From a bacterium (GTDB lineage: Bacteria > Acidobacteriota > Thermoanaerobaculia > Multivoradales > J023): DNA of 64,000 nucleotides. Position 1 is the stretch's first letter. Each line of letters begins with the position of its first letter. Of this stretch, positions 3,246 through 26,496 are shown piece after piece. Below the pieces are notes generated by a model, which was not told where the DNA came from, searched no databases, and was given only the letters and a program-made list of their open reading frames with translations. A program made the position numbers and the translations under genes. The stretch lies in assembly GCA_024226315.1 (NCBI GenBank), contig JAAELT010000305.1, forward strand, positions 18,304 to 82,303. The letters run 5' to 3'.

Positions 3246-3350
3246 ATGATCACAGGCGCCCACTCCGTTATCTACAGCACCGATCCCGAGGCCGACCGCA
3301 CCTTCCTGCGCGACGTGCTCGAGCTGACCCACGACCTGGCCCGTCAAGCC
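3246..3350 (+). pseudogene. VOC/glyoxalase-family gene fragment (only ~30 N-terminal codons retained)
   Basis: MITGAHSVIYSTDPEADRTFLRDVLEL matches the typical N-terminus of VOC/glyoxalase-like proteins. Similarity is lost after ~30 residues, where the ORF runs into the 3' end of the convergent yaaA gene. Confidence 0.45.
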
Positions 3351-3354
3351 TTGC

Positions 3355-4143
3355 TCAACGGGAAACGGGCGGCGGCTGGGGACGGTGGAACTCCCAGCGC
3401 GTCTCGGTGGAGAGGGCGTCTTGCAGCACGTAGCCGCCACCGTCGAAGGCACGCAGCTGGTCCGCGGAGGTCGCCCGGTTCTGAGTCGCCCACCGTACCA
3501 TCTGGCCACGGGCTGCTTTGGCGAAGAAGGAGAGCACTCGCGCCTTTCCTTCTTTGACGTCCTTGAAGACCGGGGTGATGAGCGGGCCCGCGAGCTTCTC
3601 GGGTTGGACCGAGCTGAAGTACTCCCCGGAGGCGAGGTTCACGACTGTGCGGTCGTCGCGCCCCTCGGTGAGCTGATTCAGCTGCTCCGTGATGCGCTGA
3701 CCCCAGAAGGTGTAGAGATCCTTGCCGCGCCGCGTCCTGAGCTTGGTGCCCATCTCGAGCCGATAGGGCTGGATCAGGTCCAGGGGCCGCAGGGCGCCGT
3801 AGAGCCCGGACAGGATCGCCACGTGTTCCTGGGCGAAGGCGAGGTCCTCACCGCTCAGGGTGCTGGCGTCGAGACCGCGGTAGACATCGCCGTTGAAGGT
3901 CAACACGGCTTGTCGGGCGTTCTCCGTCGTGAACGGCGTCACCCAGTCCCGGAAGCGTTGGCGGTTGAGCACGGCGAGCTTGTCGCTGATGCCCATGAGT
4001 GCCTGGAGCTTGGGCGCGCTCAGACGCCGAGTCGTCTTCATCAGCGTCTCGGTCTGATCGAGCATCGCCGGCTGAGTCGCCGGCAGACCGGGTACGGCGG
4101 ATCCTTCGACGAGGCTCTTGGCTGGGGACAGCAACATCAGCAT
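3355..4143 (-). CDS. yaaA: YaaA-family peroxide stress protein (UPF0246/DUF328)
   Basis: MLMLLSPAKSL... N-terminus typical of YaaA. GGAGG 8 nt upstream of the ATG at 4143 (the track ORF starts 5 codons earlier, at 4158). Confidence 0.85.
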   Translation of the reverse strand: MLMLLSPAKSLVEGSAVPGLPATQPAMLDQTETLMKTTRRLSAPKLQALMGISDKLAVLNRQRFRDWVTPFTTENARQAVLTFNGDVYRGLDASTLSGEDLAFAQEHVAILSGLYGALRPLDLIQPYRLEMGTKLRTRRGKDLYTFWGQRITEQLNQLTEGRDDRTVVNLASGEYFSSVQPEKLAGPLITPVFKDVKEGKARVLSFFAKAARGQMVRWATQNRATSADQLRAFDGGGYVLQDALSTETRWEFHRPQPPPVSR

Positions 4144-4195
4144 GGGGTGGACCTCCAAATCAGGGAGCGCAGCTTAGCCGCCGTCGGCGCACCCG

Positions 4196-5278
4196 TCAAC
4201 GCCCGGCGCTGAAGCGGGAGTGCTTTGAGAAGAAGTCCCAGATGATGTCGTTGCCAAAGTTGTCGGCATCATCCCGCGGCCAATCGTGCGCGCCGTCCCA
4301 GGCGCAGTGAACGACTTCGGCGCCGGTCGTGCAGCCGTCGTGCTGGATGCACGCGAGGCCGAAGGCGCCGGTCCGCGAGGTCTGGTAGGGGGTGCTCGCC
4401 GGGTCGCAGCCCTGCGACTTCGCGCTCGCCCACTTCTTCATCACATCCTCGGCCGAGGTGTAGTAGTAGCCGTCGGAGCTCTCGACGCCCTTCTGCGACA
4501 CGTAGTCGTCGCGCGTGCCGTAGACGTTCATCATCGACAGCGGCGTCGAGGCGCCGGGGGCGCAGTTGAACCCGCGAGCCAGCGTGCCGCCGACGGGAGC
4601 GATGGCGGCGAGGCGCTCCGGCATTGCGCAGCCGAGGCGGTGAACGAGCATGCCGCCGTTGCTCATGCCGGTGGCGTAGATCCGATCGAGGTCGATGCAC
4701 AGGGTCTCCTCGAGCCGGTCGAGCATGAGCTCGATGAAGCCGAGGTCGTCGTGACAGCTGGCCCAGTTGCAGGGGCGGGCCTCGCCGCACTCCGGGGGGT
4801 GCGGGTACTTGTCGGCGGTCTCCGCGCAGATCGGTCCCGCCGGGCCGGGCGAGGCGCTGCCGGCGAGGTCGTTCCACGAGGTGATGCTGTGGCCCTCGTC
4901 GGTCACGAACGCGGTGCTCTGGGGGTAGACCACCGCGTAACCGTACTCGTCCGCGTGCCGGCTCAGCCCGGTGTAGCTCTCCGTGGACTCAGCCGTGCCG
5001 GTGTAGCCATGAAAGTGCAGGACCAGGCTCACCGCGCGGCCCGGATCGTAATCAGGCGGCAGGTGCACCCGGTACTCCCGCTCGAGACCGCCGGCGCGCA
5101 TGGCGACGGTTCCGGACTTCCCCGGCACCACGGGTGGCGGCGTGCCGCAGCCGGCGCTGGCGCGCACGGCCGCGCGAACCGCTACCGGAGCTGAGGACGC
5201 GCCGGAGGCACACGCTCCGGTCAGGGAAGTTGCCAGCAAGACCGCGGCGATGGTCGTTCTCCAGGCGGCGGCGTCCAT
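4196..5278 (-). CDS. Secreted lipoprotein esterase, PHB-depolymerase-like alpha/beta hydrolase
   Basis: Signal peptide with lipobox LTGAC; LHFHGYTG and GMSNGGM (nucleophile elbow) motifs. Proposed start is the internal ATG at 5278 (GAGGGG SD); the track ORF extends to 5386. Confidence 0.7.
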   Translation of the reverse strand: MDAAAWRTTIAAVLLATSLTGACASGASSAPVAVRAAVRASAGCGTPPPVVPGKSGTVAMRAGGLEREYRVHLPPDYDPGRAVSLVLHFHGYTGTAESTESYTGLSRHADEYGYAVVYPQSTAFVTDEGHSITSWNDLAGSASPGPAGPICAETADKYPHPPECGEARPCNWASCHDDLGFIELMLDRLEETLCIDLDRIYATGMSNGGMLVHRLGCAMPERLAAIAPVGGTLARGFNCAPGASTPLSMMNVYGTRDDYVSQKGVESSDGYYYTSAEDVMKKWASAKSQGCDPASTPYQTSRTGAFGLACIQHDGCTTGAEVVHCAWDGAHDWPRDDADNFGNDIIWDFFSKHSRFSAGR

Positions 5279-5386
5279 CGGCACCCCTCGTCGCTCGAGC
5301 TCGGTGCCGGTGGCGCCGTCGAGCAGAATCAGCTCGCCCATCGCGATGCGAGCCGACAGGTCGTCCATAGGAGACGGATTCGACAT
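5279..5386 (-). pseudogene. N-terminal remnant of a homocysteine S-methyltransferase (PF02574; MmuM/BHMT-like) fused in frame upstream of the esterase
   Basis: MSNPSPMDDLSARIAMGELILLDGATGTELERRGVPMDAAAW aligns with the E. coli MmuM N-terminus MSQNNPLRALLDKQDILLLDGAMATELEARGCNLADSLW. Similarity stops where the esterase signal peptide begins. Confidence 0.45.
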
Positions 5387-5399
5387 GGGTGAGAACGGC

Positions 5400-6926
5400 T
5401 CAGCGCGACTCGTCTGCCGCTCGGTCCTCCTCGAGCCATTTGAGCAACGACGCCACGCTGATCGCGATGACGAACATCAGCGGGAAGGCGACGACGATCG
5501 AGACCGTCTTGAGCGGCTCCAGCCCACCCAGGTACATCAGCGAGATCGCCATGGAACCGAGGGCCAGGGCCCAGAACAGCCGGTTCCAGCGCCGCGGCTC
5601 GCGCTTGCCGGCTTCGAGGTTTTTCGAAGCCACCGAGGCGATGGTGTAAGCGGAAGAGTCGACCGTGGTGGCGGAGTAGATGAAGCTCATCAGCAGGAAG
5701 ATCACCAGCATGAAGGTGCCGGCCGGCAGGTTCTCGACCACCGCCACGATCGCCGCCTGCCCGGAGACCTCACTCATGATCTTCGTCACCGGCACCTGGC
5801 CGGTGAGCTCGTCGTGGAGCGCCGTGTTGCCTAACAGGGCGAAGAACAGCCAGCACCCCAGGCTGCCCCAGACGACGTTGGCGACCACCACCTCGCGAAA
5901 GGTCCGCCCCTTGGAGATCCTGGCCACGAACAGACCCATGTAGGGAGCGTAGGCGATCCACCAGGCCCAGTAGAAGATCGTCCAGCTCTGGGGAAACGAC
6001 GACTCGCCCACCGGGTCGGTGTAGAAGCTCATCTGGAGGAAATTGCCGGCCATGAGCCCGAGGCTGTTGGTGAAGGTCTCGACGATGAAAACGGTCGGGC
6101 CGAGCAGGAGGATGAGAGCGCAAAGGCCGAGGCCGAGGAAGACGTTGACGTCCGAGAGCCACTTGATCCCCCGGTCGAGCCCCAGGTAGACGCTGGTACC
6201 GAAGATCGCCGTCCAGATGACAACGACGACAGCGTCTAGGCCGAAGCTGCGCTCGATGCCGAAGAGAGAGCTGATCGACTCCGACAGAATCGGCGTCCCC
6301 AACCCCAGGGACGTACCGGTGCCGCCGACCAGACCGAGGATGAAGAGGACGTCGATGATCTTGCCGACCAGGCCGTCGGCGCGATCACCGATGACGCCCC
6401 GGCAGGCCTGGCTGATCCTCAGGAAGGGAATCTTCTTGACGTGAAAGGCATAACCGATGGGCAGGGCGGGCAGGCAATAGATGGCCCAGGCGATAGGTCC
6501 CCAGTGGTACATGCCGTACATGGCCGCCCAGTGCGCCGCGTCCGTGGATCCAGGCTCGATGCCGAAGGGCGGCGCCTGGTAGTAGTAGACCCACTCGATC
6601 GTGGCCCAGTAGAGCAACGAGGTGCCGATACCGGCGCAGAAGAGCATGGCGATCCAGCTCACGGTGGAGAACTCGGGCCGGTCGTCGGCGTCGCCCAGCT
6701 TCACCCGGCCGTAACGGCCGAAGGCGAACCACAGCAGGAGGGCGAAGTTGGCCGCGGCGAACCACAGATAGAGCGAGCCGAACTGGTGGGTGGTGAAGCT
6801 CAGGACCCGCTTCAGCGCCACGTCGCTCTCCGCCGGCCACGCGACGAGCGGCAGGATCACCGCGATCACGCAGATCAGTGCGGGCCAGAAGACCTGGCGG
6901 TCGATGGGGGCGGATCGGTCACTCAT
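5400..6926 (-). CDS. BCCT-family (betaine/carnitine/choline) transporter
   Basis: BCCT signature WTIFYWAWWIAYAPYMGLFVARISKGRT; about 12 TM segments. Start moved to ATG 6926 (MSDRSAPID...); the upstream 80 codons of the track ORF are low-complexity overlap with hipA. Confidence 0.9.
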   Translation of the reverse strand: MSDRSAPIDRQVFWPALICVIAVILPLVAWPAESDVALKRVLSFTTHQFGSLYLWFAAANFALLLWFAFGRYGRVKLGDADDRPEFSTVSWIAMLFCAGIGTSLLYWATIEWVYYYQAPPFGIEPGSTDAAHWAAMYGMYHWGPIAWAIYCLPALPIGYAFHVKKIPFLRISQACRGVIGDRADGLVGKIIDVLFILGLVGGTGTSLGLGTPILSESISSLFGIERSFGLDAVVVVIWTAIFGTSVYLGLDRGIKWLSDVNVFLGLGLCALILLLGPTVFIVETFTNSLGLMAGNFLQMSFYTDPVGESSFPQSWTIFYWAWWIAYAPYMGLFVARISKGRTFREVVVANVVWGSLGCWLFFALLGNTALHDELTGQVPVTKIMSEVSGQAAIVAVVENLPAGTFMLVIFLLMSFIYSATTVDSSAYTIASVASKNLEAGKREPRRWNRLFWALALGSMAISLMYLGGLEPLKTVSIVVAFPLMFVIAISVASLLKWLEEDRAADESR

Positions 6927-6941
6927 AGATGGAATCCGGCG

Positions 6942-6972
6942 TTCTTTCAGACTACGAGACCCCCGGAACGGT
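6942..6972. repeat. ~31-bp dispersed repeat spanning the stop codon of hipA; second copy at 11985..12015 spanning the stop of the histidine kinase gene (3 mismatches)
   Basis: ttctttcagactacgagacccccggaacggt vs ttctctcagactacgaaacccccggcacggt. In both genes the reverse complement encodes the final residues TVPGVS* followed by TCTGARAGAA. Confidence 0.7.
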
Positions 6973-8223
6973 CCGGAACGCTCGTCGTGTGGCTTCGGCA
7001 CGCTCGCTGATGTCGTGGGTGATCTGCTCGAACATCGAACGCGCGGGATCTGGGGGCGACGGGGCGATTTCTTCGGCGAGCCGGCGGGCCTCGGCGGGGA
7101 GCCGTTCGGCCATCGCCAGCAGATCTCGGCGAACGCGTGGAGGGGCGAGGCCCACATCACGGGCAAAGCGCTCCCAGTGGCGCGGCAGGATCTGACCGAA
7201 GCGGTTTCTGCCGCCGACTTTCATCGCCATGCGACCCGTGTGATCGCGGTATACCGTCGTGCACAGGAGATCGTAGGCGGGCGCCAACCGCGTGCCTTCG
7301 GCCTCGTGGAGAAGCGCGAAGTTCTTGCCGTGGGCATCGGCATTGCCGATCAGATAGTTGAAGAGTACCCGTCGCAGCATCTCGAGGCGATCCAGCGCCG
7401 GTCGTGAGCAGGCTTCGAGCAGAGCGAACGACCGTGCGAGCGACGGACCGCCCTCGCCCTGATACTTGCGCTCGGGTGGGATGGCGAGCGCCTGGCAGAA
7501 GTCCTCCTGGTGCACACGCTGGATGAGGCCGTCCTCGGCGGGCGCACGATCGTAGCGCTCGATGAGGAGGAACTGAACGTCCTCGGCAGACGCCATCTCC
7601 ACCGCCGGCACCCGGATCCCCACGCGAGCCGCCAGCTTCATGCAGAAGCATTCGTTGGGCACGGTGTCGACGAACTGGGTGATCGCGGGCTTCAGGATGT
7701 GGGTCGTGGGGAAATCTCCCCGCGGCAGGAAGAAGGTCTCGTCGCTATGGACGAGAGCCATCTTGTCCTGGGCGCCGGCGAGCGACAGGCGCAGCTCGCC
7801 GCCGGCGTGAAGCGGGCGCCGGGGGAGATCACGCAGGAGCGCCGCCAACGCGGCCTCGTCCAGGGGCGCGAGGTCGCCGGCGCCCGCGGCCGGCGGCGGG
7901 ACGTCCGGTGGGTAGAACGCGATCGCGCCCGCGCATTCGCCGCCGACCTCGGCGAGGAGCGCAAAGTCGTTGTGTCGGGAGACGCCCAGGTGGCGAGCGA
8001 GGCGCTCGCGGGACAAATCGTCGGGCAGCAACCCGGCGAAGAACGGCCGCGCCACGCGGTCCTCGAATGCCGCTCCCTGCAGAGGCAGGGACAGAGAGAG
8101 CGGTCGGCGACCGGCTTGCCGGAGCCACTCCCCCCGGTAACTGAAGGTGAGGCGCCCCGAGTCCTCCTGCCGCAGCGTGCCAACCACCTCTCCCTGGAGA
8201 TAGACGGTGAGATCCCTAGCCAA
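6952..8223 (-). CDS. hipA: HipA-family serine/threonine kinase toxin
   Basis: PLSLSLPLQ, SLAGAQDKMAL and D-x-H-x-K-N motifs. Probable TTG start at 8223 with GGAGGA SD, overlapping the hipB stop. Confidence 0.8.
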   Translation of the reverse strand: MARDLTVYLQGEVVGTLRQEDSGRLTFSYRGEWLRQAGRRPLSLSLPLQGAAFEDRVARPFFAGLLPDDLSRERLARHLGVSRHNDFALLAEVGGECAGAIAFYPPDVPPPAAGAGDLAPLDEAALAALLRDLPRRPLHAGGELRLSLAGAQDKMALVHSDETFFLPRGDFPTTHILKPAITQFVDTVPNECFCMKLAARVGIRVPAVEMASAEDVQFLLIERYDRAPAEDGLIQRVHQEDFCQALAIPPERKYQGEGGPSLARSFALLEACSRPALDRLEMLRRVLFNYLIGNADAHGKNFALLHEAEGTRLAPAYDLLCTTVYRDHTGRMAMKVGGRNRFGQILPRHWERFARDVGLAPPRVRRDLLAMAERLPAEARRLAEEIAPSPPDPARSMFEQITHDISERAEATRRAFRTVPGVS

Positions 8224-8476
8224 TGCGATCCTCCGGGAGCTCGAGCACGACCCGCAGCCCGAGCATGTTGAGCACACGGAGCACGTGACCGATCCCGGCG
8301 GTCTCCCGGCCGCGCTCCAACTCGCTCAAGAAACGCCGACTGACGCCGCAGGCGGCGGCGAGGTCTTCCTGGGTCATGCCTTGAGCCCTGCGCTCGATCC
8401 GGACGGCGCGGCCGAGCTCGTCGATCGACTGGATAATTCGTTTCATGATCCCGATCGGGAACTTCTCTCCGATCAA
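8216..8476 (-). CDS. hipB: HipB-like XRE-family HTH antitoxin
   Basis: HTH_XRE motif QGMTQEDLAAACGVSRRFLSELERG; immediately upstream of and overlapping hipA. Confidence 0.75.
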   Translation of the reverse strand: MIGEKFPIGIMKRIIQSIDELGRAVRIERRAQGMTQEDLAAACGVSRRFLSELERGRETAGIGHVLRVLNMLGLRVVLELPEDRIG

Positions 8477-11994: not shown

Positions 11995-13833
11995 CTACGA
12001 AACCCCCGGCACGGTGAAACAGATCGAACACCCCTGCCCCCGCCCCTCCGACTCGACCCACACCCGGCCGCCGTGCACCTCGATGATCCGGCGCACCGTG
12101 GCCAGGCCGATGCCGCTGCCGTCGCCGCCGGCGTCGAGCTGGCGAAAGAGGGTGAAGACCTCTTCCTGGTGCTCGGGCTCGATGCCGATGCCGTTGTCGC
12201 GCACGTAGCAGACCGGACCCTCGGGGTCTTCGCGCATCCCGATCTCGACGCGCGGCGCGGCCTGGTCGCCCATGTACTTGGCGGCGTTCTCGAGCAGGTT
12301 CTGGAGCACCTGCAGCAGGCGGGTGCGGTCGCCGAAGACCATCGGCAGATCGGGCGAGATGTCGACCTCGACCCCGCGCTCGTGGAGCGGGCCGGCCACC
12401 AGAACCTGGGCCTCGCGCGCCAGCCCGAGCAGGCGAACCTCGCGCGGCTCGCCGACGATCTGGCCGCTGCGCGCCACCTCCATGACGTCTTCGAGCAGCC
12501 GGTTCATGCTTTTCGCGGCCTGGCGGATCCGCCGGATGGGGATCTCCGTGCGGGACCTCTCGCCCGCGGCGACGCCGTCTTCGAGCAGGCCCAGATAGCC
12601 CGTGATGCCGGTGAGCGGGCTTCGCAGGTCGTGCGACACGGTGTAGGCGAAGCGCTCGGTCTCGGCGCTACGGGCCTCGAGCTCGCTCACCAGGCGCTCG
12701 CGCTCCTCGGACTTCTGGCGTTCGACCTCGAGCAGCATGCCGCGGGTCTGCTCGTACTTGTGCTGCCGGTGCAGCAGCTGGCCGAAGGCGACGAGGTAAA
12801 ACAGCACCACCAGGGAGCGCGGCCGATCGGCGGCGGCGTCGGGAAGACGGTAGAACTGATACACCAGATGGAGCACCGGCAGGAGGGCGGCGTAGAGCAG
12901 CAGGATGTTGGAGAAGGGGTACGCCAGCCGCTCGCGGATCAGCGCTTCCTCCGAGGCCTCGGCCACCTCGCCGCGGGGCAGGGCGTGGCGCAGGCGCGCG
13001 AAAACGACCAGGGGAAAGAGGTACACGTACCAGGGCGTGAAGTACAGCGGCGGGACCTCTTTCCAGGAGTACACGAACCACGAGCTGGGGTAGTAGCCCA
13101 GCAGATCGATCGCGTCGGTCACCGTGGTACAGGAAATCGTCAGGGCCAGAGCTCCGTAGAGCGTACGCCAGCGTGGATCCCGGGTGATGCGATGGACGTA
13201 GGCGATGCGGACCAGGAGCAACAGATCGATCGCTAGGTAGAGGCTCCCCGAGGGGACGAAGGTGATGTATTCCTCCGCCGAGACTGCGGTCGGAATCACG
13301 ATGTAGTAGACGGTGAGGCCGATGAAGAAGAACGCCGCTCCCTCGAGCTCGAACCGCCGCCGGGCTCGCCAGGCATGAAGGTGCTCGGGTGAGAAAACGC
13401 GGTGGGGATGGGTCTCGACGGCCGAGAGCAGAAAGAGGTAATACAGCACGTAGAGCGAGTCTTCGAGCAGTTGCCCCCACAACGTGAGATTGGCCTTGGG
13501 AAAAAAGACCCAGAACAGCATGGCGGCCAGCCAGCACGAAAAGGCATACGAGCAAAGCTCCCAGAAGCGGTGCTCGGCCGGCCTCTCGATCTTCCCCAAC
13601 CCGTGCCGCAAAGCCCAGACGGCGGCCACGAGCCCGATCAGGTTGCCTTCGTAGAAATCGATCAGCTCGAATCCCGCCGCCAGCGGCAGGGCGAAGAGCG
13701 CCACGGCTGCGAGTACCACGAGCGTGGCGGCCTGCAGGACCGGGTCGCCGCGGAAAGCGCGGACGAAGAGCGCCCGCGCGCCGGTGGCGGGGGTGGGGTC
13801 GGGCGTCATCGATAAGGATTTCGTTGTGGCCAC
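11995..13833 (-). CDS. Membrane sensor histidine kinase (polytopic N-terminal sensor, HisKA, HATPase_c)
   Basis: H-box FAYTVSHDLRSPL; N/G1/G2 boxes LLENAAKY, RDNGIGI, GSGIGL. No adjacent response regulator. Confidence 0.85.
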   Translation of the reverse strand: MATTKSLSMTPDPTPATGARALFVRAFRGDPVLQAATLVVLAAVALFALPLAAGFELIDFYEGNLIGLVAAVWALRHGLGKIERPAEHRFWELCSYAFSCWLAAMLFWVFFPKANLTLWGQLLEDSLYVLYYLFLLSAVETHPHRVFSPEHLHAWRARRRFELEGAAFFFIGLTVYYIVIPTAVSAEEYITFVPSGSLYLAIDLLLLVRIAYVHRITRDPRWRTLYGALALTISCTTVTDAIDLLGYYPSSWFVYSWKEVPPLYFTPWYVYLFPLVVFARLRHALPRGEVAEASEEALIRERLAYPFSNILLLYAALLPVLHLVYQFYRLPDAAADRPRSLVVLFYLVAFGQLLHRQHKYEQTRGMLLEVERQKSEERERLVSELEARSAETERFAYTVSHDLRSPLTGITGYLGLLEDGVAAGERSRTEIPIRRIRQAAKSMNRLLEDVMEVARSGQIVGEPREVRLLGLAREAQVLVAGPLHERGVEVDISPDLPMVFGDRTRLLQVLQNLLENAAKYMGDQAAPRVEIGMREDPEGPVCYVRDNGIGIEPEHQEEVFTLFRQLDAGGDGSGIGLATVRRIIEVHGGRVWVESEGRGQGCSICFTVPGVS

Positions 13834-13943: not shown

Positions 13944-16900
13944 TCAGCCCAGCGCCCGCTCGATCAGCTCTTTCTGCTCTTTCTTGTGCGCCGCCGCCGA
14001 GCCGGTCGCCGGGCTCGCGGACGGTGAGCGGGTGACGCAGTCCAAGGGCCAGCGGCCGAAGGGCCGGCGGCCGAGGCGCAGCAGCAGGAAGCTCCAGGCG
14101 CCCATGTTGCGTGGCTCCTCCTGTACCCAGAAGACGGGGGTGTCGTCGGCGTAGGGTGCGAGCGCCGATTCCAGCGAGTCTTCGGACAGCGGATAGTACT
14201 GCTCGAGCCGCACGATCGCCACGTCCCGGCGCTCGCTCTCGCGGCGCTCTTTCTCGAGGTCGTAGTAGACCTTGCCGCTGGTCACGAGCACTCTTTTCAC
14301 GCCCGCCGGCTCGACCTCGGCGTCGGGGATGACGCGCTGGAAGCTGCCGCCGGCCAGCTCGTCGATCGTCGACACGGCGCGCGGGTGGCGTAGCAGGCTC
14401 TTGGGCGACATGACGATCAGCGGCTTGCGCCACGGCCGCAGCACCTGGCGGCGCAGGCAATGGAAGTACTGGGCCGGGGTGGTGAGGTTCACCACCTGGA
14501 TGTTGTCTTCCGCGGTGAGGTTGAGGTATCTCTCGAGCCGGGCGGACGAATGCTCCGGGCCCTGGCCCTCGAAGCCGTGCGGCAGCAGCATCACCATGCC
14601 GGAGAGGCGCCGCCACTTGTCCTCGCCCGAGGTGATGAACTGGTCGATGATCACCTGGGCGCAGTTCGAGAAGTCACCGAACTGAGCCTCCCACAGGCAT
14701 AGGCCGTCCGGCGTGTCCATGCTGTAGCCATACTCGAAGCCGACGACGCTGACCTCGGACAGCGGGCTGTCCCAGACATGGACCTCGGCCTGGACCTCGG
14801 CCAGGTGTTGCAGGGGCACGTGGAGGGCGCCGGTCTCGAAGTCGTAGAGCACCGCGTGACGGTGGCTGAAGGTGCCGCGGCCCGAGTCCTGGCCGCTGAA
14901 ACGAACCCGGGCACCTTCCGCCGCCAATGACGCCAGGGCCGCGGCCTCGGCGGCCCCCCAGTCGAGCGGCATCTCGCCGGCCGCCATCTTCTGCCGGTTG
15001 CCGAAGAAGCGGCGCAGCTTGCGGTGGACGTTGAAGTCCTCGGGGATGTCGGCACTCTTGCGCAACAGCTTCGCGAGCCGCTCTCTGTTCATCCCGGTCG
15101 CGACCTCCGGCACCTTGGCGTCGGCGCCGCCCACATAGCCTCGCCACAGGCCGCCCCCGGTCTTGACCATCATCGTGTAGGTGAGCTCGTCCTGGGTCTC
15201 CTGCGACTTGCTCAGCTCGTTTTCGAGATCCCGGGTGCGCTCCTCGCGGATCTTCTCCGCCTCCTCGCGGTCGACCCCTCCCAACTCCAGCATGTGCTCG
15301 AGGTAGCTCTCGCGCACCGTCTTGCGGTTGCGGATGACCTCGTAGAGCAGCGGCTGGGTGTAGGACGGCTCGTCGCCCTCGTTGTGGCCGTAGCGGCGGT
15401 AGCAGTACATGTCGATGATCACGTCCTGCTGGAACTCGCGCCGGTAGTCCATGGCGATGCGCACGACATGGGCGACGGCGTCCGGATCCTCGCCGTTGAC
15501 GTGGAAGACCGGCGTCTGGATCATGCGCGCGACGTCGGTGGCGTACTGGGTGGAGCGCCCCATCTCGGGCGAAGTGGTGAAACCGATCTGGTTGTTGACG
15601 ATCACGTGCAGCGTGCCGCCGGTACGGTAGCCCGGTAGGTTGGCCATGTTGAACAGCTCCTGGATCACGCCCTGCCCGGCGAAGGCGGCGTCGCCGTGCA
15701 CCAGGATGCCCAGGCAGCGCCGGTGCTCGGTGTCGCCGAAACGCTCCTGCTTGGCCCGCACTCGCCCCTGCAGCACCGGGTTGACGAATTCCAGGTGGCT
15801 GGGGTTGAAGCACAGCGAGAGGTGCATCTTTCGGCCGCCCTCGAGCTCACGGTCGGAGCTGAAGCCCAGGTGGTATTTGACGTCCCCGCCGCCGATCATC
15901 AGATCGGGGTCGTCGTCCGCGAACTCGCGGAAAACGTCGCGGGGACTCTTTCCCATGATGTTGACCAGCACGTTGAGCCGGCCGCGATGGGCCATGCCCA
16001 GAACCACCTCGTCGACCCCCTGGCCGGCGGCCTCCTCGAGCGCCAGGTCGAGCAGCGGGATCAGGGTCTCGGCCCCTTCGAGCGAGAACCGTTTGGCTCC
16101 CAGGAACTTCTTGTGGATGAACTGCTCGAACAGCTCGGCGTCGGTGAGCTTGGTGAGGATGCGCAGCTTCTCGTCGCGGTCGAGGCGGCGGTGGTGCTCG
16201 GAGTCCTCGACGCGGTTGATCAGCCAGTTCTTGGCGTGCACGTCGTCGATGTGCATGAACTGCACGCCGATCGAGCTGCAGTAAACCGCCTTGAGCAGAG
16301 CCAGGATATCGCGCAGGGTCAGCACGGTGGTACCGGCGATGGTGGTGGAGGAAAACAGGGAATCGAGGTCATTCTCGGACAGGCCCCAGTGCTCGAGCTC
16401 GAGCTCGGGGCTCGAGGTCCGGGTGCGACCGAGCGGGTCGAGCGATGCCAGCAGGTGACCTCTCACCCGGTAGGCGTGGATCAGCCGGTTGACTTTGTCC
16501 TGCCGCGAGCTGCGCTCGCGCAGGCGCGAGGTGAGCATCTGCAGGAAGCCGCGGTTGAGCACCGGCCGGCGCTCGAGCAGGCCCAGCAGATCGAAACGGT
16601 CGATCGACAGTGTCTTGACGTCGCCGCGGGCGACGACGTCGGCCGAGCGCGGCTGCGAGTCGAGCACCGACAGCTCGCCGAACACCTCACCCGCCTGCAG
16701 CATGGCCACGATCTGGTCCTTGCGCCGCACCAGCAGCTCGCCCTCGATCAGCAGGTAGAGGGAGGTGCCCTCGTCGGCCTCGCGGAACAGCACCTGGCCA
16801 CCCGAGAAGCGCTCTTCGACGGCGAGCAGCGCCACCGCCGCCACCTCCTCGGGCGGCAGGCCCCGGAACAGCTTGAGATCCTGCAGAAACTTCACCCGCT

Positions 16901-17276
16901 CGGCGGTTTTGCCGGTGACCGCCACCGGTGGACTGGCCAGCGCGGCAGTGACGGAGGTAGCCGCGCCGACAGATACGGGTCCTACGGCAGCCGCGACCGG
17001 TGGCGCGCCGGCCGCCGGGGCGCTGGCCGCCGGGGCGCCGGCCGGAAGAGCGCCGCTCGGTGGAGCCTCACTCGGCGGGTCGAAGATGCTCGACGCCGAG
17101 AAGCTCGGCCCATCGACCGAGCGCCGGGCCGCCCAGGCGTCACCGTCCTCCGAGGCCCAGCCCTCGAAGTATCGCCGCCAGTCTTCCTCGACCGAGGTCG
17201 GATCCTCGAGGAAGCTGGCGTAGAGCGCCTCGACAAAGGGAAGATTGCTTCCGGCTAGAGGATCGTCGCTGGGCAT
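13944..17276 (-). CDS. sucA: 2-oxoglutarate dehydrogenase E1 component with an inserted cyclic-nucleotide-binding (CAP-effector) domain
   Basis: Collinear with E. coli SucA (VNRLIHAYRVRGHLLASLDPLG, GAKRFSLEG, VVLGMAHRGRLNVL, GDVKYH). Residues ~128-256 form a complete cNMP-binding domain with phosphate-binding cassette FGELSVLDSQPRSADVVA. Confidence 0.85.
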   Translation of the reverse strand: MPSDDPLAGSNLPFVEALYASFLEDPTSVEEDWRRYFEGWASEDGDAWAARRSVDGPSFSASSIFDPPSEAPPSGALPAGAPAASAPAAGAPPVAAAVGPVSVGAATSVTAALASPPVAVTGKTAERVKFLQDLKLFRGLPPEEVAAVALLAVEERFSGGQVLFREADEGTSLYLLIEGELLVRRKDQIVAMLQAGEVFGELSVLDSQPRSADVVARGDVKTLSIDRFDLLGLLERRPVLNRGFLQMLTSRLRERSSRQDKVNRLIHAYRVRGHLLASLDPLGRTRTSSPELELEHWGLSENDLDSLFSSTTIAGTTVLTLRDILALLKAVYCSSIGVQFMHIDDVHAKNWLINRVEDSEHHRRLDRDEKLRILTKLTDAELFEQFIHKKFLGAKRFSLEGAETLIPLLDLALEEAAGQGVDEVVLGMAHRGRLNVLVNIMGKSPRDVFREFADDDPDLMIGGGDVKYHLGFSSDRELEGGRKMHLSLCFNPSHLEFVNPVLQGRVRAKQERFGDTEHRRCLGILVHGDAAFAGQGVIQELFNMANLPGYRTGGTLHVIVNNQIGFTTSPEMGRSTQYATDVARMIQTPVFHVNGEDPDAVAHVVRIAMDYRREFQQDVIIDMYCYRRYGHNEGDEPSYTQPLLYEVIRNRKTVRESYLEHMLELGGVDREEAEKIREERTRDLENELSKSQETQDELTYTMMVKTGGGLWRGYVGGADAKVPEVATGMNRERLAKLLRKSADIPEDFNVHRKLRRFFGNRQKMAAGEMPLDWGAAEAAALASLAAEGARVRFSGQDSGRGTFSHRHAVLYDFETGALHVPLQHLAEVQAEVHVWDSPLSEVSVVGFEYGYSMDTPDGLCLWEAQFGDFSNCAQVIIDQFITSGEDKWRRLSGMVMLLPHGFEGQGPEHSSARLERYLNLTAEDNIQVVNLTTPAQYFHCLRRQVLRPWRKPLIVMSPKSLLRHPRAVSTIDELAGGSFQRVIPDAEVEPAGVKRVLVTSGKVYYDLEKERRESERRDVAIVRLEQYYPLSEDSLESALAPYADDTPVFWVQEEPRNMGAWSFLLLRLGRRPFGRWPLDCVTRSPSASPATGSAAAHKKEQKELIERALG

Positions 17277-17314
17277 GGCCTGACTCCCAAGGGTCTATTC
17301 GAAAGGTTTTGATT

Positions 17315-19183
17315 CTATCTGTCTTCGCCGACCAAAGTCAGGGCACAGCCGAGATAGAAGTAGTGCTCCCCCTTCTCGCGCCAACGCGGCATTTCGCCGG
17401 TGGCGGTGCGAATCTCCATGCGGTAGACATAGATGTCGAGCACGCGCTCCCACGCCGCCCGGTCGCGGTCGTTGCGCACCATGGTCGGGCGCGGCACCTT
17501 CAACACGACCCGCGTAAGTTGGTCAGGACCGGCGACGATGCGCTCGCTCGCGCCCTCGATCTCGAACGTCACCTCGTTACCCGGGGCCTGGCTGCGCACG
17601 TCGAAGGTCAGCTCGGTAATCGGCTCGAGGCTCTGGATCCAGATCTCCGAGGGGCCGCCGGCGCCGATCCACAGCTCCTCGCCCTCAGGGCGCAGGTGGT
17701 CCTTGCGGCCATAGAAGTATATGTCGCCGCGGGCGGCTCCGAAGTAGCCCGGCAGCTCGCGCAGGGAGAGCTCGAGCGGAAAGGCCTGGAACGGATGGTT
17801 GCGGCCGTGGGCCTGGAGCGTCGGCGACGGCACCGCCAGGCCGTAGGGCGAGAACACCAGCGAGCCGATGAACAGGCCGCCGGCGGCGAAGCCCGGTGCC
17901 ACGATCCAGTCCGGGCGGATCCGCGTCACCAGGAAGAGAAACGCCGGATAGAGCATGAAGAAATAGCGGTTGCCCACGAAGCCGCCGCCGCCGTGCCAGT
18001 TGTGGTGCAGGAAGGTGAGGAAGAAGAGCGTAATCAAGGCGAGCGATCCGAGCACTGTCCAGCGCACGGCGCTGCGCCGGCCGTAGGCCAGGAACAGGCC
18101 GAGGGCGATCACCGCGAACGGGTGGTACGGGACCAGGCCGACGTGGCGCCCGAAGAGGAAATACACGAAGTCCTCGCGCAGCTCCGGCAGGCTGACCTGG
18201 GGGACCCCGAAGATCCACCACCAGCCCGCGGTCTCCTTGCCCAGCTCCGCCTCGGCCGCGGCTACCGGCGTTCCCGCCGGCGTCGGCTCCTTCGGCTCCA
18301 CCGGCATGACGTGCGGCGTGTGCACGTTGTAGCCCTGGCGGTCGATGCCGAGATACGACGTCGGGTGGCCGGTCAGGACCTGGCCGATGCCGGCGAAGAT
18401 CCCCACGGTGACCGCCGCCGCGGCCAGCCACAGCAGGAGCTGTCGCCAGCACCGGTGGCGCACCAGCCGAAAGCAGACGGGCAGCCCGATCGCCGCCAGC
18501 ATCGGCTTGTTGTACACGCCCACCGCCAGCGCCGAGGCCGACGCCACGATGGCCACGCGATCCGTCGTCAGCCACGCTGGCAGCCGGGACCACAGGGCGC
18601 GCGTCGTGCCGAAGGCGCGCGGGTCGCGCGACGGGTCGCGCGACGGCTCGAAGGCGTGCAGGCCGAAGAACAGGCAGGCCGCCGTGGCGAACATGTTGAG
18701 CATCTCGGGCTGCAGCCAGTAGACGTAGCGGTAGGTCGTGCTCATCAGAAAGAAGCCCGAGGCGAAGAGCGCCGCCAGCCAATCGGCGTTGTAGCGCCGC
18801 AGGTAGAACGTCGACATCCAGATCATCGCCACCAGCAGCAACGTGTTGAACACCACCAGGCCGTTGGCCTTCCACAACGCGGCGAACGGCGCCGCCAGCA
18901 TGGAGTAGGCGTAGGGCTTGCCGTAGTAGACCGTGTGCCAGCCGTCGTCGGTCGACAGGATGAGGTTCTGGATCGGCGCGTAGGGGAACTCTTCGTAGAG
19001 ACGCGCCAGGTCCTCGGGCTCGCAGCGCAGGTCGCCGTCCCTCGCCAGGCTGAGCGCCGCCAGGTAGTAGGCCGGCTCGTCGGCCTTGAGGGTCGCGGGC
19101 ATGCCCGGCTTGCGATGGGTCAGCGGCAGGATCAGGAGCGCCAGCGACAGGCAGGCGAGGGCCAGGGTGACGCCGCGGCTCAT
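17315..19183 (-). CDS. Polytopic membrane protein, GT-C-fold glycosyltransferase (PMT/ArnT-like) with C-terminal soluble beta-rich domain
   Basis: Signal/TM start and more than 10 predicted TM helices across ~470 aa, then a soluble C-terminal region. Stop overlaps the upstream nucleotidyltransferase gene. Confidence 0.5.
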   Translation of the reverse strand: MSRGVTLALACLSLALLILPLTHRKPGMPATLKADEPAYYLAALSLARDGDLRCEPEDLARLYEEFPYAPIQNLILSTDDGWHTVYYGKPYAYSMLAAPFAALWKANGLVVFNTLLLVAMIWMSTFYLRRYNADWLAALFASGFFLMSTTYRYVYWLQPEMLNMFATAACLFFGLHAFEPSRDPSRDPRAFGTTRALWSRLPAWLTTDRVAIVASASALAVGVYNKPMLAAIGLPVCFRLVRHRCWRQLLLWLAAAAVTVGIFAGIGQVLTGHPTSYLGIDRQGYNVHTPHVMPVEPKEPTPAGTPVAAAEAELGKETAGWWWIFGVPQVSLPELREDFVYFLFGRHVGLVPYHPFAVIALGLFLAYGRRSAVRWTVLGSLALITLFFLTFLHHNWHGGGGFVGNRYFFMLYPAFLFLVTRIRPDWIVAPGFAAGGLFIGSLVFSPYGLAVPSPTLQAHGRNHPFQAFPLELSLRELPGYFGAARGDIYFYGRKDHLRPEGEELWIGAGGPSEIWIQSLEPITELTFDVRSQAPGNEVTFEIEGASERIVAGPDQLTRVVLKVPRPTMVRNDRDRAAWERVLDIYVYRMEIRTATGEMPRWREKGEHYFYLGCALTLVGEDR

Positions 19184-19977
19184 CGATCGAGCTCCCGTGC
19201 CGCGAAGCGGGCGGTGGCCCGCCGCAGATCTTCGGGCGTGCCGACGTCGAGGAAGGATCCCTCCGGGAAGCGCACCGCCGCCACCGCCAGACGATCGTCG
19301 ATCGCGGCCTGGATCACGTCACCGACATAGATCTCTTGCCCCTCCTCGCTGATCGCCGCGCCCACGTAATCGTGCAGGTAGCGGCTGAACCGCGGGCCCC
19401 AGACCGCGATCGACCAGGTGAACCGCAGGCCGGTATCGCGCTGCTTGATGACGATGCGCCTTACCCGGTCCGCCTCGTCGAGCTCGACCATGTCGGCCTT
19501 CCACGACTGATCGGTGGGAAACGCGCCGAGCACCACCTCCGCGCCACCGCGCGCGCGCTCGGCGAGCAGCGCGGCGTAGGCGTCGCCCGGCTGGAAGAGG
19601 ATGTCGGGGAAGCCGAGCGCCACCGTCGACTCGGCAATGAACGGATAGGCCCGATCGAGCGTCTCCGGCACGCTCGCCGTCGGCTCGAGCGCAAGATAGG
19701 CGAGCGGCAGCCCGTGGTCCGCGCCGCTGCCCAGGAGCGCCGGAATGTCCCACTTGCCCTGCCGCAGCAGGACGAAGGCGCGCCCCACCCCCGAGCTCGC
19801 GAAGCTCTCGAGCAAGTAACTGCACACCGCCCGGGGGCGCGGCTCGCCGTCTTCCCCGGTGCTGAAACCGAGCGGCAGGATCTCCTTGCTGCAGGGCAAT
19901 GGGCCCAGACGGTCGGCCCGCCCCGCCGCCGGGATCAGACCGACCACGTCGCTGGTGCTGTGATGACTTTGACCCAC
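19180..19977 (-). CDS. Sugar-phosphate nucleotidyltransferase family protein
   Basis: G-x-G-x-R motif GLIPAAGRADRLGPLPCSKE typical of the NTP_transferase fold. Translationally coupled to the downstream GT-C gene. Confidence 0.6.
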   Translation of the reverse strand: MGQSHHSTSDVVGLIPAAGRADRLGPLPCSKEILPLGFSTGEDGEPRPRAVCSYLLESFASSGVGRAFVLLRQGKWDIPALLGSGADHGLPLAYLALEPTASVPETLDRAYPFIAESTVALGFPDILFQPGDAYAALLAERARGGAEVVLGAFPTDQSWKADMVELDEADRVRRIVIKQRDTGLRFTWSIAVWGPRFSRYLHDYVGAAISEEGQEIYVGDVIQAAIDDRLAVAAVRFPEGSFLDVGTPEDLRRATARFAARELDR

Positions 19978-21982: not shown

Positions 21983-22095
21983 ATAGGCCGGTGGGATGGG
22001 CCAAGAAGTCGAACGCCGAAGGCTTCGAGTTCTTGGGGCGCTAGCAGATCGTCCGCGGATCGGACAGCCCGGCCTGGCTGGCGACCGGGAGACCT

Positions 22096-22451
22096 CGGAT
22101 TCAGGGTGAATCGGACTCTCCGGAAAAGCAGAGACCTCGGATTCAGGGTGAATCGTAACCTCCGGCAAATCAGGAGGGTGCGATTCACGCTGAATCGCAA
22201 CCTCCGGCAAATCAGGAAGGCGCGATTCACACTGAATCGTGACTACCAAAGGTAACCGAGGTTGCGATTCACGCTGAATCGCGACCCTCCTTTCGTAACC
22301 GATGGTGCGATTCACGCTGAATCGCGCCTGCGTCGCGTAACCGAGGTTACGATTCACGCTGAATCGTGCCTTCGACGCGTAACCGAAGTTGCGATTCACG
22401 CTGAATCGCGACCACCACACGTAACCGGAGTTGCGATTCACGCTGAATCGC
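22096..22451. repeat. Tandem array of 9 units with 42-43 bp period; each unit has a 19-bp palindromic core GCGATTCACGCTGAATCGC plus a ~23-bp partly conserved, partly variable spacer; two unit subfamilies (units 1-3 vs 4-9)
   Basis: Unit starts at 22096, 22138, 22180, 22222, 22264, 22307, 22349, 22391 and 22433. 8-bp arms GCGATTCA/TGAATCGC. Spacers share ...cgtaaccgaggtt with only a ~10-11 bp hypervariable core. Confidence 0.8.
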
Positions 22452-22769
22452 GACTCCGGCGTGATTTCGTTGGGTGAGTCGAGGAAGACGATCGAGTAGC
22501 CTGAGGTTCAGTCACCTGGCGTCGCCGTTCTGGCTCTCTCCGGGAACCGGACCGACCAGATAGAACAGCATAGTGTCGGAAACGGGCGAAACACGGATCG
22601 TGGCAATCGAGCCGACCGTGAGTTCGCGTCAGAGGAGGAGGTGCGAGATGCAGGTCAGAACCGGTGTGAATGCTGGGTATGGACCCTCGGTTGAGCCCGC
22701 AGGCTGAGTCCGGCGCCCGTGAGGGTGCGGCCGTTATGGCCGTGCCCTCACAAGGTCGACTAGAATGAA

Positions 22770-24409: not shown

Positions 24410-24712
24410 GTGGAGGTCGTCTGGTCGCGGGCAGCCGATCGAGACCTGGCTCGGATCTACTCCTACCTGGAACCGAGGAGTCTCCGGGCGGTTCGCGGCC
24501 TTCTGCGGCGTCTATTCAAGACGATAGATCTGTTGGCTGAGATGCCCCGGATGGGGACGGTCGCCGATCTCGGACTGGAGAGGGAATACCGACAGCAGGT
24601 GGTCGAGCACTACAAGATCTTCTACTACGTCGAGGAAGAGCGCCTCGTCATCGTGCGACTCTGGGACACCCGCCAAGACCCCACGAAGTTCTTCGTCCCC
24701 CTTACACCTTGA
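24410..24712 (+). CDS. parE: ParE/RelE-family toxin
   Basis: GTG start 2 nt after the yefM stop. VVWSRAADRDLARIYSYL...EMPRMGTV...YRQQVVEHYKIFYYVEEERLVIVRLWDTRQDP is typical ParE. Confidence 0.75.
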   Translation: MEVVWSRAADRDLARIYSYLEPRSLRAVRGLLRRLFKTIDLLAEMPRMGTVADLGLEREYRQQVVEHYKIFYYVEEERLVIVRLWDTRQDPTKFFVPLTP

Positions 24713-24715
24713 GCA

Positions 24716-24853
24716 TCCGGCCTGCAACTCGCCCAGGGTGACCGCGGATAGGTGAAGCTCGTCGTTGTCGATGCCCTCGAGCCAGGCGATCACGGCTCCG
24801 TGAGGGCGTGGACGCCTGAGCTCCGAGATGACGTTCGTGTCGAGCAGATACAA
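24716..24853 (-). pseudogene. VapC (PIN-domain toxin) N-terminal fragment; remainder displaced by or overlapping the convergent parE
   Basis: MYLLDTNVISELRRPRPHGAVIAWLEGIDNDELHLSAVTLGELQAG is a canonical PIN N-terminus (~46 aa). The rest of the 113-aa ORF is antisense to parE and lacks the distal PIN acidic residues. Confidence 0.5.
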
Positions 24854-24857
24854 GAGC

Positions 24858-25145
24858 CTACTCGAAGACCTCCGGCGACCGGCGGCGCCAGCGCCGCCGC
24901 GAAGGGACCGGGATTTCGGCGCGGGGAGAATCGGCGAGCAGCAGCTCTTTCAGCGTCGGTCCGGCGGCTCTTCGCAGGCGGCGCCAATCCTCCACCGGTA
25001 CCAGGACCGCGGCCTCGACGCCCCGGCGGGTCACGATCTGCGGGCCTTCGCGGAGGCTGGCCTCCAACAATCGGCTGAAGTGCGTTTTCGCATCGTGGAC
25101 CGGCCACCGCTTCGGGCTCGTTTCTCCGGCCATGAAGTCCTCCAA
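24858..25145 (-). CDS. Phd/YefM-type (VapB-like) antitoxin
   Basis: WPVHDAKTHFSRLLEASLREGPQIVTRRGVEAAVLVPVEDWRRL; directly upstream of the vapC fragment. Confidence 0.65.
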   Translation of the reverse strand: MEDFMAGETSPKRWPVHDAKTHFSRLLEASLREGPQIVTRRGVEAAVLVPVEDWRRLRRAAGPTLKELLLADSPRAEIPVPSRRRWRRRSPEVFE

Positions 25146-25251: not shown

Positions 25252-25758
25252 TCATGACGCCGGGGTGACCGAGGTGGCGGGGTGACCGAGGGGGGTGACC
25301 GAGGTGGCTGGCACCGCGGACAGCAGCGCCTTGGCCGAAGCGACTGGATCTCCGTCGACGGAAGCCAGCCCCAGGGCTTCGTCGACAAGACCTACGCTCT
25401 CTTCTTCACGGTCACGGAGCGCAGTGTACCGAGCGATCCGAAGCAGGACGGAGGCCCGTTCTTCCTCAACGTTTCTTAACAGCTCAAGAGCGGCCTCCTC
25501 GGAGCCAGCGGCGAAGAGCGCCTCGACTGCGGCATTCAGGGCCTCGGGGTCTGCTGTCTGCGTTGCCATGTCGGTAACGCGGACGACCAGTTCGGCTCGC
25601 GCCTGTGGGTCTGGGGTCAGCTTTGCGCCGGGGCTGCAAGCGGCAAGAATTGGGATGATGAGCAGTCCGACCCATCTGATTTCATTGACGCTACAGTTGC
25701 GGCCTCCAGATCCATCGCGGTTACCGCGGATGAATTCGCGTTCCGAGATTGTATGCAT
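25252..25758 (-). CDS. Hypothetical lipoprotein
   Basis: Strong SD GGGAGGA 4 nt before the ATG; lipobox ILAAC. The 3' end lies inside a dispersed GC-rich repeat and encodes ...SAVPATSVTPLGHPATSVTPAS. Confidence 0.5.
   Translation of the reverse strand: MHTISEREFIRGNRDGSGGRNCSVNEIRWVGLLIIPILAACSPGAKLTPDPQARAELVVRVTDMATQTADPEALNAAVEALFAAGSEEAALELLRNVEEERASVLLRIARYTALRDREEESVGLVDEALGLASVDGDPVASAKALLSAVPATSVTPLGHPATSVTPAS
25262..25327. repeat. GC-rich dispersed repeat, locus A (GTGACCGAGGTGGC x3, ending GGGTGACCGAGGTGGCTGGCACCGCGGACAGCAGC); exact 35-bp match at 31824..31858
   Basis: Direct sequence comparison; both copies lie at the 3' ends of minus-strand genes. Confidence 0.75.
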
Positions 25759-26496
25759 GGGATCCTCCCTTCGCTAATTGATCCACGAGTTTGCCTTTCG
25801 GCAGCTCGGCGGTCTTGGAGTCCTTCGTGGCGGCCAGCGTCGCGGAGGAAGCGAGGACCCGTGGCTTTGCGGCACCGGCTTTTGCCGGCTGTGCCTTTTC
25901 GAGGCGCTCGGGTGTCGTTGTTATCGAGACAGCACGAACCTCATTACTAGAGATCATGCTGTCTTCTACATAAGTAGTGACGCCTAACCGCCAGTTATCT
26001 CACCTACATCTAAGAAAAATCCACGAGATCGACTGGGGCTAGAAGCCGGGCGGGCGTCGCAAGACCCGAGCGGCTTCGTGATCGCACCCCCATCAGTCTG
26101 GAGAGGGCGGCGCCACTTAAGGTGCCGGCCGTCTCGGCAAACAGAGTAGCACACCGACCCGATCGACCAGCGGTCACACGCCGAACCGAGCTGATCCCAG
26201 TCCGCGAGCTACCGCGGACACCCTCTGCGAACGGCTTCCGAGGCGCAGTCCGTGTCTCAATGGCGCTAATGAGCGCGCCTTGGGGCTTCTTGGGCGCACC
26301 GGGTCCGCAGCTCTCTATGGAGCGGAGCGGTAGCAGCAAAATCGTTCTGGGTACTTTCTGGTCTGGCTCGGCGAGCGCCTCTTCAACAGCTACGACGGCG
26401 CCCGCGCCGGCCCCGCGCGGCTGCAAGGCAGCCCAACGTCGCTCGGCACGTGAGGTCTCGGCGGAGGAAAGCAACCTGGTGGGAACTCCACGCCAC

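Follow-up and report, generated by a model that had tools for sequence, protein, structure and literature searches.

Does a central enzyme of the tricarboxylic acid (TCA) cycle carry its own receptor for a cyclic nucleotide? This question is raised by a gene for the E1 component of 2-oxoglutarate dehydrogenase (SucA, or E1o) that lies in positions 18,304 to 82,303 of contig JAAELT010000305.1 (assembly GCA_024226315.1), a stretch of 64,000 nucleotides that is called the window below. Inserted between the N-terminal docking peptide and the catalytic core of this enzyme is a cyclic-nucleotide-binding (CNB) domain. With moderate confidence, we read this domain as a built-in, cis-acting receptor for cAMP or cGMP that shifts a working E1o between resting and active states. 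The architecture itself is beyond reasonable doubt, occurs widely and bears clear marks of selection; the function is what we infer.

Pfam places five domains along the protein, in the order 2-oxogl_dehyd_N, cNMP_binding, E1_dh (aa 383-694), Transket_pyr (aa 771-963) and OxoGdeHyase_C (aa 969-1109). A preliminary description of the window, made from its letters, had claimed that a complete CNB domain sits between the conserved N-terminal segment of SucA and the catalytic core, and had proposed a Pfam scan as a check. The scan bears the claim out: PF00027 (cNMP_binding) matches aa 155-236 with E=4e-18 and 65.6 bits, well above its gathering score of 27.5, and the core is covered by the NCBIfam SucA equivalog NF006914 (1227 bits, cut-off 764), which aligns aa 254-1109 with model positions 73-916. 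The SucA model TIGR00239 also matches, with 1070 bits against a cut-off of 770. Since the alignment with NF006914 begins at aa 254 and model position 73, the extra domain takes the place of the short natural linker of SucA. The thiamine diphosphate (ThDP) motif of the core is intact, and its residues G528, D529, N561 and N562 are invariant among 80 aligned sequences.

Two details of the preliminary description concern the limits of the inserted part. It gave the domain as 16509-16895, that is, residues 128-256 of the 1110-aa open reading frame (ORF); a CNB domain is indeed present there, but its structured part begins near aa 122, slightly upstream of that start. The 60-aa Ala/Pro-rich linker that it saw ahead of the domain is found at aa 57-121 and is predicted to be disordered. 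The gene and the parts of its product, in which AF2 denotes an AlphaFold2 model and pLDDT its per-residue confidence score, are as follows.

13944..17276, minus strand: gene for the CNB-containing 2-oxoglutarate dehydrogenase E1 component (SucA/E1o), a complete ORF of 1110 aa plus stop codon
17284..17288, minus strand: Shine-Dalgarno-like GGGAG, 7 nt 5' of the ATG of this gene, read from the sequence
17157..17258, minus strand: N-terminal E2o(/E3)-docking peptide FVEALYASFLEDPTSVEEDWRRYF, aa 7-40 (PF16078 2-oxogl_dehyd_N, E=2e-11)
16914..17108, minus strand: disordered Ala/Pro-rich tether, aa 57-121 (AF2 pLDDT <50 for aa 57-114)
16506..16913, minus strand: CNB domain, aa 122-257, consisting of N-terminal helices, beta-roll, cassette, B-helix and C-helix (PF00027, AF2)
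13947..16502, minus strand: E1o catalytic core, aa 259-1110, consisting of the small helical domain, the ThDP-binding and pyrimidine-binding alpha/beta domains and the C-terminal domain (Foldseek, ThDP motif)

An unusual architecture may be an artefact, either of a chimeric metagenome assembly or of a gene-calling step that fused two genes, and the sequence does derive from a metagenome-assembled genome (MAG), as does the identical NCBI protein MCP3959930.1 (100% identity). However, the gene is a single unbroken reading frame with a uniform GC content at third codon positions (GC3) of 0.90, and NCBI, ENA, JGI and Logan together contribute more than 100 independent assemblies with the same architecture, some of them contigs of 5-12 Mb. 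Chimeric assembly is rejected on the ground of this recurrence, and the probability that we leave to an artefact of any kind is negligible. The ORF starts with ATG, 38 nt from the stop codon of the upstream gene, and the ORFs on the opposite strand over this region are spurious frames typical of a genome with 67% GC. Note that the source databases label these proteins merely '2-oxoglutarate dehydrogenase E1 component'.

The next question is whether the domain is equipped to bind a cyclic nucleotide. The part of the domain that bears on it is the following.

16629..16691, minus strand: phosphate-binding cassette GEVFGELSVLDSQPRSADVVA, aa 196-216, with ribose-binding E201 and phosphate-binding R210 (conservation in 114 fusion proteins)

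A cassette containing the ribose-binding Glu and the phosphate-binding Arg had already been pointed out in the preliminary description, and it is found as FGELSVLDSQPRSADVVA at aa 199-216, with E201 and R210 in these roles. Its residues G200-E201-L-S-V-L-D-S-Q-P-R210-S211-A212 fit the pattern G-E-x-[AS]-x(6)-R-[ST]-A. Among the 114 fusion proteins, G200 is conserved in all 114, E201 in 112, P209 in 111, R210 in 110 and A212 in 113, and the spacing from G to R is 10 residues in every one of them. The cassette of PKA RI-alpha (GELALIYGTPR) has the same 10-residue spacing. While whole CNB domains of the family diverge to about 36-45% identity, the cassette residues stay near-invariant, and the ligand-contacting residues rank among the most conserved CNB positions across several phyla. 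Two relatives also match PF00027 (77.7 bits in locus L020 and 59.6 bits in L046). A sequence comparison of the domain with the PDB ranks PKG, Epac, PKA-R and CRP highest; the E-values of 1e-26 to 1e-13 are whole-chain values, summed over the CNB repeats of multi-domain kinases.

These data also bear on an alternative in which the CNB fold has been repurposed, either for a nucleoside or non-cyclic nucleotide (the case of trypanosome PKA) or for a metabolite, for example 2-oxoglutarate, which NtcA of the CRP family senses. Binding of other ligands by CNB folds is known (PMC2246266, PMC10959531). A sensor of the substrate would make physiological sense on E1o, and the residue that follows R210 is variable (S in 86 fusion proteins, V in 10, I in 9, A in 4, W in 2 and T in 2). 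Nevertheless, the Glu and the Arg are kept in 112 and 110 of the 114 proteins, respectively, the cassette has the length seen in PKA, and every top-ranking sequence match in the PDB is a genuine receptor of cyclic nucleoside monophosphates (cNMPs). It is general knowledge, moreover, that the nucleoside-binding trypanosome domains and NtcA have lost this Glu/Arg pair. We thus hold a repurposed ligand site to be quite unlikely and take a cyclic nucleotide as the probable ligand. The motif R-S-A is found in cAMP-binding CRP, and R-T-A is found in both cGMP-selective and cAMP-selective domains; for this reason the identity of the ligand is not readable from the sequence.

How, then, is the putative sensor joined to the enzyme? 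An AF2 model of the protein, calculated from 80 family members, has a mean pLDDT of 82.4 and a predicted TM score (pTM) of 0.77. In this model, the docking segment is helical (aa 9-55), and the CNB domain, with pLDDT of 81-93, is composed of helices at 122-133 and 142-151, beta strands within 153-226, the cassette helix at 201-206, a B-helix at 227-236 and a C-helix that begins at 238. The prediction is thus an eight-stranded beta-roll with N-terminal and B/C helices, as the CNB fold demands. The C-helix is not predicted to end at the domain boundary.

16449..16565, minus strand: predicted single continuous helix RQDKVNRLIHAYRVRGHL, aa 238-276, comprising the CNB C-helix and the helix that opens the E1o small helical domain (AF2)

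The length of this connector is fixed across the family. The spacer from P238 to H274 is 36 residues in 114/114 fusion proteins, that from R210 to H274 is 64 residues in 113/114, no Pro occurs within aa 239-272 in any of the 114, and the connecting-helix residues R251, R253 and Q259 are nearly or fully invariant. Insertions and deletions do occur after the CNB-core junction, unlike within the spacer, and the tether-containing segment from aligned position 40 to 128 ranges from 0 to 93 residues. Downstream of the junction, the core is an ordinary one: Foldseek aligns it with Vibrio vulnificus SucA 6km9 (TM 0.93-0.94, 49% identity) and E. coli E1o 2jgd (TM 0.91-0.92), and also matches it to M. 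smegmatis KGD 2xta. No solved chain in the PDB aligned by Foldseek extends beyond the core (the top-ranked alignments have 860-954 columns and TMq <=0.72), so that no PDB structure has this architecture.

A natural variant is informative in this respect. In the Acidimicrobiia locus L020 (5962-8970), the CNB domain is located at the extreme N-terminus and is followed by the same junction and E1o core, and the 2-oxogl_dehyd_N docking peptide is absent; the library representatives P0152 and P0177 appear to be of the same type. This architecture raises the question of how its E1o reaches E2. Given the invariant spacer, the predicted continuous helix and these docking-less variants, the conserved unit is the CNB domain plus the core in a fixed register, and the flexible element lies upstream of the sensor.

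The position of the domain could, on the other hand, be taken to mean that it binds a cyclic nucleotide and controls assembly or higher-order organisation, by governing the access of the peptide to E2o/E3 or by CNB-CNB dimerisation of E1o protomers. It is generally known that CRP-type CNB domains dimerise by their C-helices and that E1o is an obligate homodimer. The CNB domain does sit between the E2o/E3-docking peptide and the core, and a docking role is documented for the homologous peptide in humans, since peptides 18-22 and 27-40 of human E1o, which correspond to the PF16078 segment, bind E2o and E3 (PMC8146983). However, a disordered linker of 0-93 residues parts the peptide from the CNB domain, the junction that is rigid and invariant is the one between the CNB domain and the core, and the Acidimicrobiia-type variants retain the CNB-core unit without having a peptide to control. 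Because the docking peptide is held on a floppy tether, an effect on assembly is less likely than one on catalysis, and we consider control of assembly unlikely.

The preliminary description had suggested that the phylogenetic distribution of the fusion be examined, and the fusion turns out to recur in several phyla. In a homolog set composed of the best 120 clusters at 90% identity, the five-domain architecture is present in about 110, down to 54% identity; the named clusters are labelled Acidobacteriota, Myxococcota/Myxococcales or 'Deltaproteobacteria', and some lie on contigs of 5-12 Mb. We also scanned genomes with an alignment of the CNB domain only, using one genome per species and at most 600 candidate stretches and 80 loci, so that the taxonomic range obtained is a lower bound. 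A CNB match fused to a SucA core, as checked by tblastn, is present in at least 23 species-level loci, all of them in MAGs. These carry the labels Acidobacteriota, Thermoanaerobaculia, Ca. Multivoradales and Myxococcota (L002-L018, L041), Acidiferrobacterales (L019, L046), Ectothiorhodospiraceae (L033, a partial locus) and Acidimicrobiia (L020), and the MAG labels of the carriers include Gammaproteobacteria. Among representatives at 50% identity, about 15 of the 150 listed match in one stretch from the CNB domain through the junction, many of these being fragments; the 47 representatives at E<=1e-30 are not a clean count of fusions, because they are dominated by multi-CNB proteins whose scores add up.

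Identity to the window protein in the CNB domain and in the core falls together (r=0.94, n=22), and the fusion CNB domains occupy one region of a CNB-only neighbour-joining (NJ) tree, which is poorly resolved and carries no bootstrap values. From this co-divergence and shared region, one old fusion that has been inherited as a unit, with a single origin, appears likely. In the same tree, the fusion group also takes in a clade from actinomycete MAGs, made up of CNB domains at the C-terminus of TLC/MFS-HEAT proteins. The nearest non-fusion CNB domains by NJ are those at the C-terminus of TLC/MFS-HEAT-repeat proteins of about 1000 aa (L024 and L075, about 3300-6450). In the fusion-bearing genome of L084, a TLC/MFS-HEAT protein and a stand-alone CNB protein are encoded at 16782-19231, about 5.5 kb from sucA-CNB.

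Is the CNB-bearing SucA the E1o that the cell uses? The gene for E2o, sucB, directly follows the fusion gene in 11 of 22 related loci, and lpd follows in turn in four of these 11; for this reason we regard the protein as a working E1o and not a stray paralog. The preliminary description had noted that sucA is orphaned from sucB and lpd. This is true of the window, where neither gene was found among about 43 scanned ORFs, and of the closest relatives (L001-L003 and P0016), whose sucA-CNB likewise has no linked sucB/lpd, but it does not extend to the family as a whole. The immediate neighbours in the window, both on the same strand, are a 622-aa membrane protein with weak similarity to LA_3751-type glycosyltransferases upstream (17315-19183) and a 612-aa sensor histidine kinase downstream (11995-13833, gap of about 110 nt). 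Co-transcription of sucA-CNB with these flanking genes is possible; the synteny with the two is not kept in relatives.

The mechanism that we propose starts from what was observed, namely the domain identity, the architecture, its conservation, the operon context, the invariant spacer and the predicted continuous helix. The protein would dock on the E2o core via its N-terminal peptide, held on the flexible Ala/Pro tether of variable length. According to the AF2 model, the CNB domain and the catalytic core would form one mechanical unit, in which the CNB C-helix and helix 1 of the E1o small helical domain are continuous. A molecule of cAMP or cGMP would bind the canonical cassette, with E201 contacting the ribose 2'-OH and R210 the phosphate, and the domain, like those of other CNB proteins, would respond with a shift of its B/C-helix hinge. 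In PKA, Epac and CRP, the same relay from cassette to B/C helices operates. The helix of fixed register may then pass the movement on and bias the equilibrium of E1o between resting and active conformations, and the outcome would be direct control of 2-oxoglutarate decarboxylation, and of flux through the 2-oxoglutarate node, by a second messenger.

Both halves of this scheme have precedents. A relay of ligand binding from the cassette via the B/C-helix hinge is described for CNB domains (PMC2246266). For actinobacterial E1o, resting and active conformations are known that are selected by acetyl-CoA and by GarA/OdhI, and in MsKGD the transition from resting to active is restrained by the E2o domain, which is fused at the N-terminal site that the CNB domain occupies here (PMC10415282). 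Ligand binding, the nucleotide concerned, transmission to the active site and the direction of the effect are the steps that we infer. As to direction, the nucleotide would more likely relieve autoinhibition, a weakly founded preference drawn by analogy with Pat, PKA, PKG and Epac. The case for direct gating of E1o by a cyclic nucleotide, which the preliminary description had also suggested, is strengthened by the near-invariant cassette, the invariant spacer and the predicted continuous helix. Taken as a whole, the analysis suggests that a second messenger directly controls a central step of the TCA cycle.

Several observations weigh against a cis-acting receptor, and they are best considered together. 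First, a second AF2 model, that of P0116 (about 55% identical), has an equivalent 39-residue helix at 215-253, but the alignments of the two runs overlap heavily, so that the agreement is a robustness check and not a fully independent result. Second, R210 is replaced by W in one monophyletic Acidobacteriota subclade (P0038, P0040, P0042 and P0058, with the motif 'GQPWSADV'). P0034 and P0035 have Trp at position 211 instead. These variants may be natural changes of ligand specificity or losses of binding. Third, no nucleotide cyclase gene was found among the roughly 43 scanned ORFs of the window or in the neighbourhoods of relatives that were examined. Fourth, E1o proteins without a CNB domain are nested at five or more places in the CNB-bearing clade of an NJ tree of the core, which has no support values (P0020, P0046, P0057, P0072/75, P0119/120 and P0118), and such relatives are under-sampled, since a ranking by bit score puts CNB-containing proteins ahead. 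P0020, for example, is 81% identical over the aligned core and keeps 'RQRERGSRQDKV', a remnant of the C-helix 'RLRERSSRQDKV'. The nesting implies that the CNB domain is dispensable for catalysis and is a removable regulatory module.

The same deletions are an argument for regarding the domain as a passenger, structural or vestigial, that serves no ligand-dependent function, since several lineages have cleanly removed it (P0020, P0046, P0057, P0072/75 and P0118-120) and their E1o is otherwise intact. A passive spacer, however, would not be expected to conserve its ligand-contacting residues across several phyla, and the invariant spacer length argues for functional coupling between the domain and the core. 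We therefore judge the passenger explanation very improbable, and a cis-acting cyclic-nucleotide receptor continues to be the reading that we prefer.

The rest of the window contains other features, which are recorded here in their own right. On the minus strand, 25797-25905 matches the c-di-GMP-I riboswitch aptamer over the full length of its Rfam model (RF01051, 50.7 bits, gathering score 35); the aptamer lies just upstream of a 173-aa ORF with no Pfam match (25252-25773, minus strand), and a gene for a PilZ-domain protein is located at 31869-32591 (minus strand). A large sugar/polysaccharide cluster at about 19-45 kb holds an Acido-Lenti-1 small RNA motif (RF01687, 40.3 bits) at 33872-33916 on the plus strand, between genes for a GT2 glycosyltransferase and a flippase-like polysaccharide-biosynthesis protein; this motif fits an Acidobacteriota origin of the window. 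Intergenic tandem repeats are found at 22089-22460 (a 42/84-nt unit, about 7.6 copies, beside a drop in GC to 0.60 at 22-24 kb), at 57626-57745 (a 42-nt unit, 2.9 copies) and at 55344-55425 (a 20-nt unit, 4.1 copies), the last in the divergent start region of the argininosuccinate lyase gene. A low-GC island (0.56-0.58) at 45661-49520 on the minus strand encodes a 995-aa nSTAND1 NTPase with WD40 repeats and an adjoining 316-aa SIR2_2 protein, a pair resembling a module of conflict or anti-phage defence. Toxin-antitoxin elements are probably encoded at 6952-8325 (a HipA-family toxin kinase with Couple_hipA and HipA_C domains) and at 24512-24949 (a PIN-domain protein), both on the minus strand.

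What would a receptor borne by E1o mean for the cell? The 2-oxoglutarate node is where carbon oxidation and nitrogen assimilation meet and, to our knowledge, it is closely regulated in every lineage studied; if the proposed mechanism is true, a nucleotide opens or closes this node. In E. coli, the sdh-suc operon is under transcriptional control by cAMP-CRP, and a receptor on the enzyme itself would considerably shorten the way from signal to flux. A central metabolic enzyme would also join the short list of direct bacterial cNMP effectors. We see an even chance that here, for the first time on record, a bacterial second messenger (cAMP/cGMP) acts directly on a TCA-cycle enzyme, with neither a transcription factor nor a protein partner in between, in a design that would be old, shared by several phyla and repeatedly lost. 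The idea is testable, because the CNB-less deletions, the docking-less variants and the R210W subclade serve as natural controls, and because the invariant connector predicts that altering the helix register will break the link between sensing and catalysis. Since soils and sediments commonly harbour the carriers, which are uncultured Acidobacteriota, Myxococcota and others, the mechanism could also inform models of how they use carbon.

It remains to compare the protein with known systems. With canonical SucA (E. coli 2jgd, Vibrio vulnificus 6km9) it shares the docking peptide and the fold of the ThDP core (TM 0.91-0.94 at 44-49% identity), and many relatives also have the sucA-sucB-lpd operon; it differs in that canonical SucA has a short linker between peptide and core (model positions about 40-73), where the window protein has a 136-aa CNB domain and a longer Ala/Pro tether. 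The actinobacterial enzymes KGD/OdhA likewise have an extra domain fused directly before the E1o small helical domain, and their E1o core switches between resting and active states under the restraint of that domain (PMC10415282). There, however, a linker of 17 residues joins the fused domain, which is a catalytic succinyltransferase, and regulation is by acetyl-CoA and an FHA protein, whereas the window protein has a putative small-molecule sensor, a predicted continuous helix and no E2o domain. An OdhA-type two-in-one enzyme was accordingly rejected, as Pfam finds no E2o 2-oxoacid_dh domain; NF008907 (KGD/OdhA) aligns over model positions 393-1239, the E1o part alone, and PRK12270 likewise covers only the core.

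PKA-R, PKG, Epac and CRP have in common with the window protein the CNB fold, the cassette length and the Glu/Arg pair, but they regulate kinases, guanine nucleotide exchange factors (GEFs) or DNA binding, and Pfam finds no helix-turn-helix (HTH), kinase or GEF domain in the window protein. A CRP/NtcA-like (CRP/FNR) regulator was rejected because the HTH domain is missing and the CNB C-helix enters the E1o core; the CRP profile NF008732 covers the CNB part alone, with 25.5 bits against a cut-off of 266. Mycobacterial Pat (Rv0998 / MSMEG_5458) resembles the window protein in being an enzyme of bacteria to which a CNB domain is fused in cis, at the N-terminus, and in Pat cAMP relieves autoinhibition. 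NCBIfam NF058543, used for the comparison with Pat, matches the CNB part weakly (31.6 bits). Pat differs in being a GNAT acetyltransferase that acts indirectly on metabolic enzymes, whereas here the sensor is on the central metabolic enzyme itself. In Bd1971, a CNB-EAL phosphodiesterase, and in family 2B encapsulin shells with a CNB insertion (PMC11550324), the CNB domain is again a modular insertable sensor, but the partner proteins are not components of the TCA cycle or of 2-oxoacid dehydrogenases; Bd1971 chains are among the PDB matches, and NF041163 (encap_f2b) is a weak match.

We found no description of a CNB-E1o fusion in the full-text literature searched, most subscription journals being outside it, and a term search of the text of the 2007 CNB census gave no mention of one. 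By analogy, the closest working likenesses appear to be the cis-regulated CNB enzymes, Pat and Bd1971, together with allosteric E1o. Enzymes regulated by CNB domains and allosterically regulated E1o are each known; their combination in E1o appears to be new, without being a categorically new kind of system.

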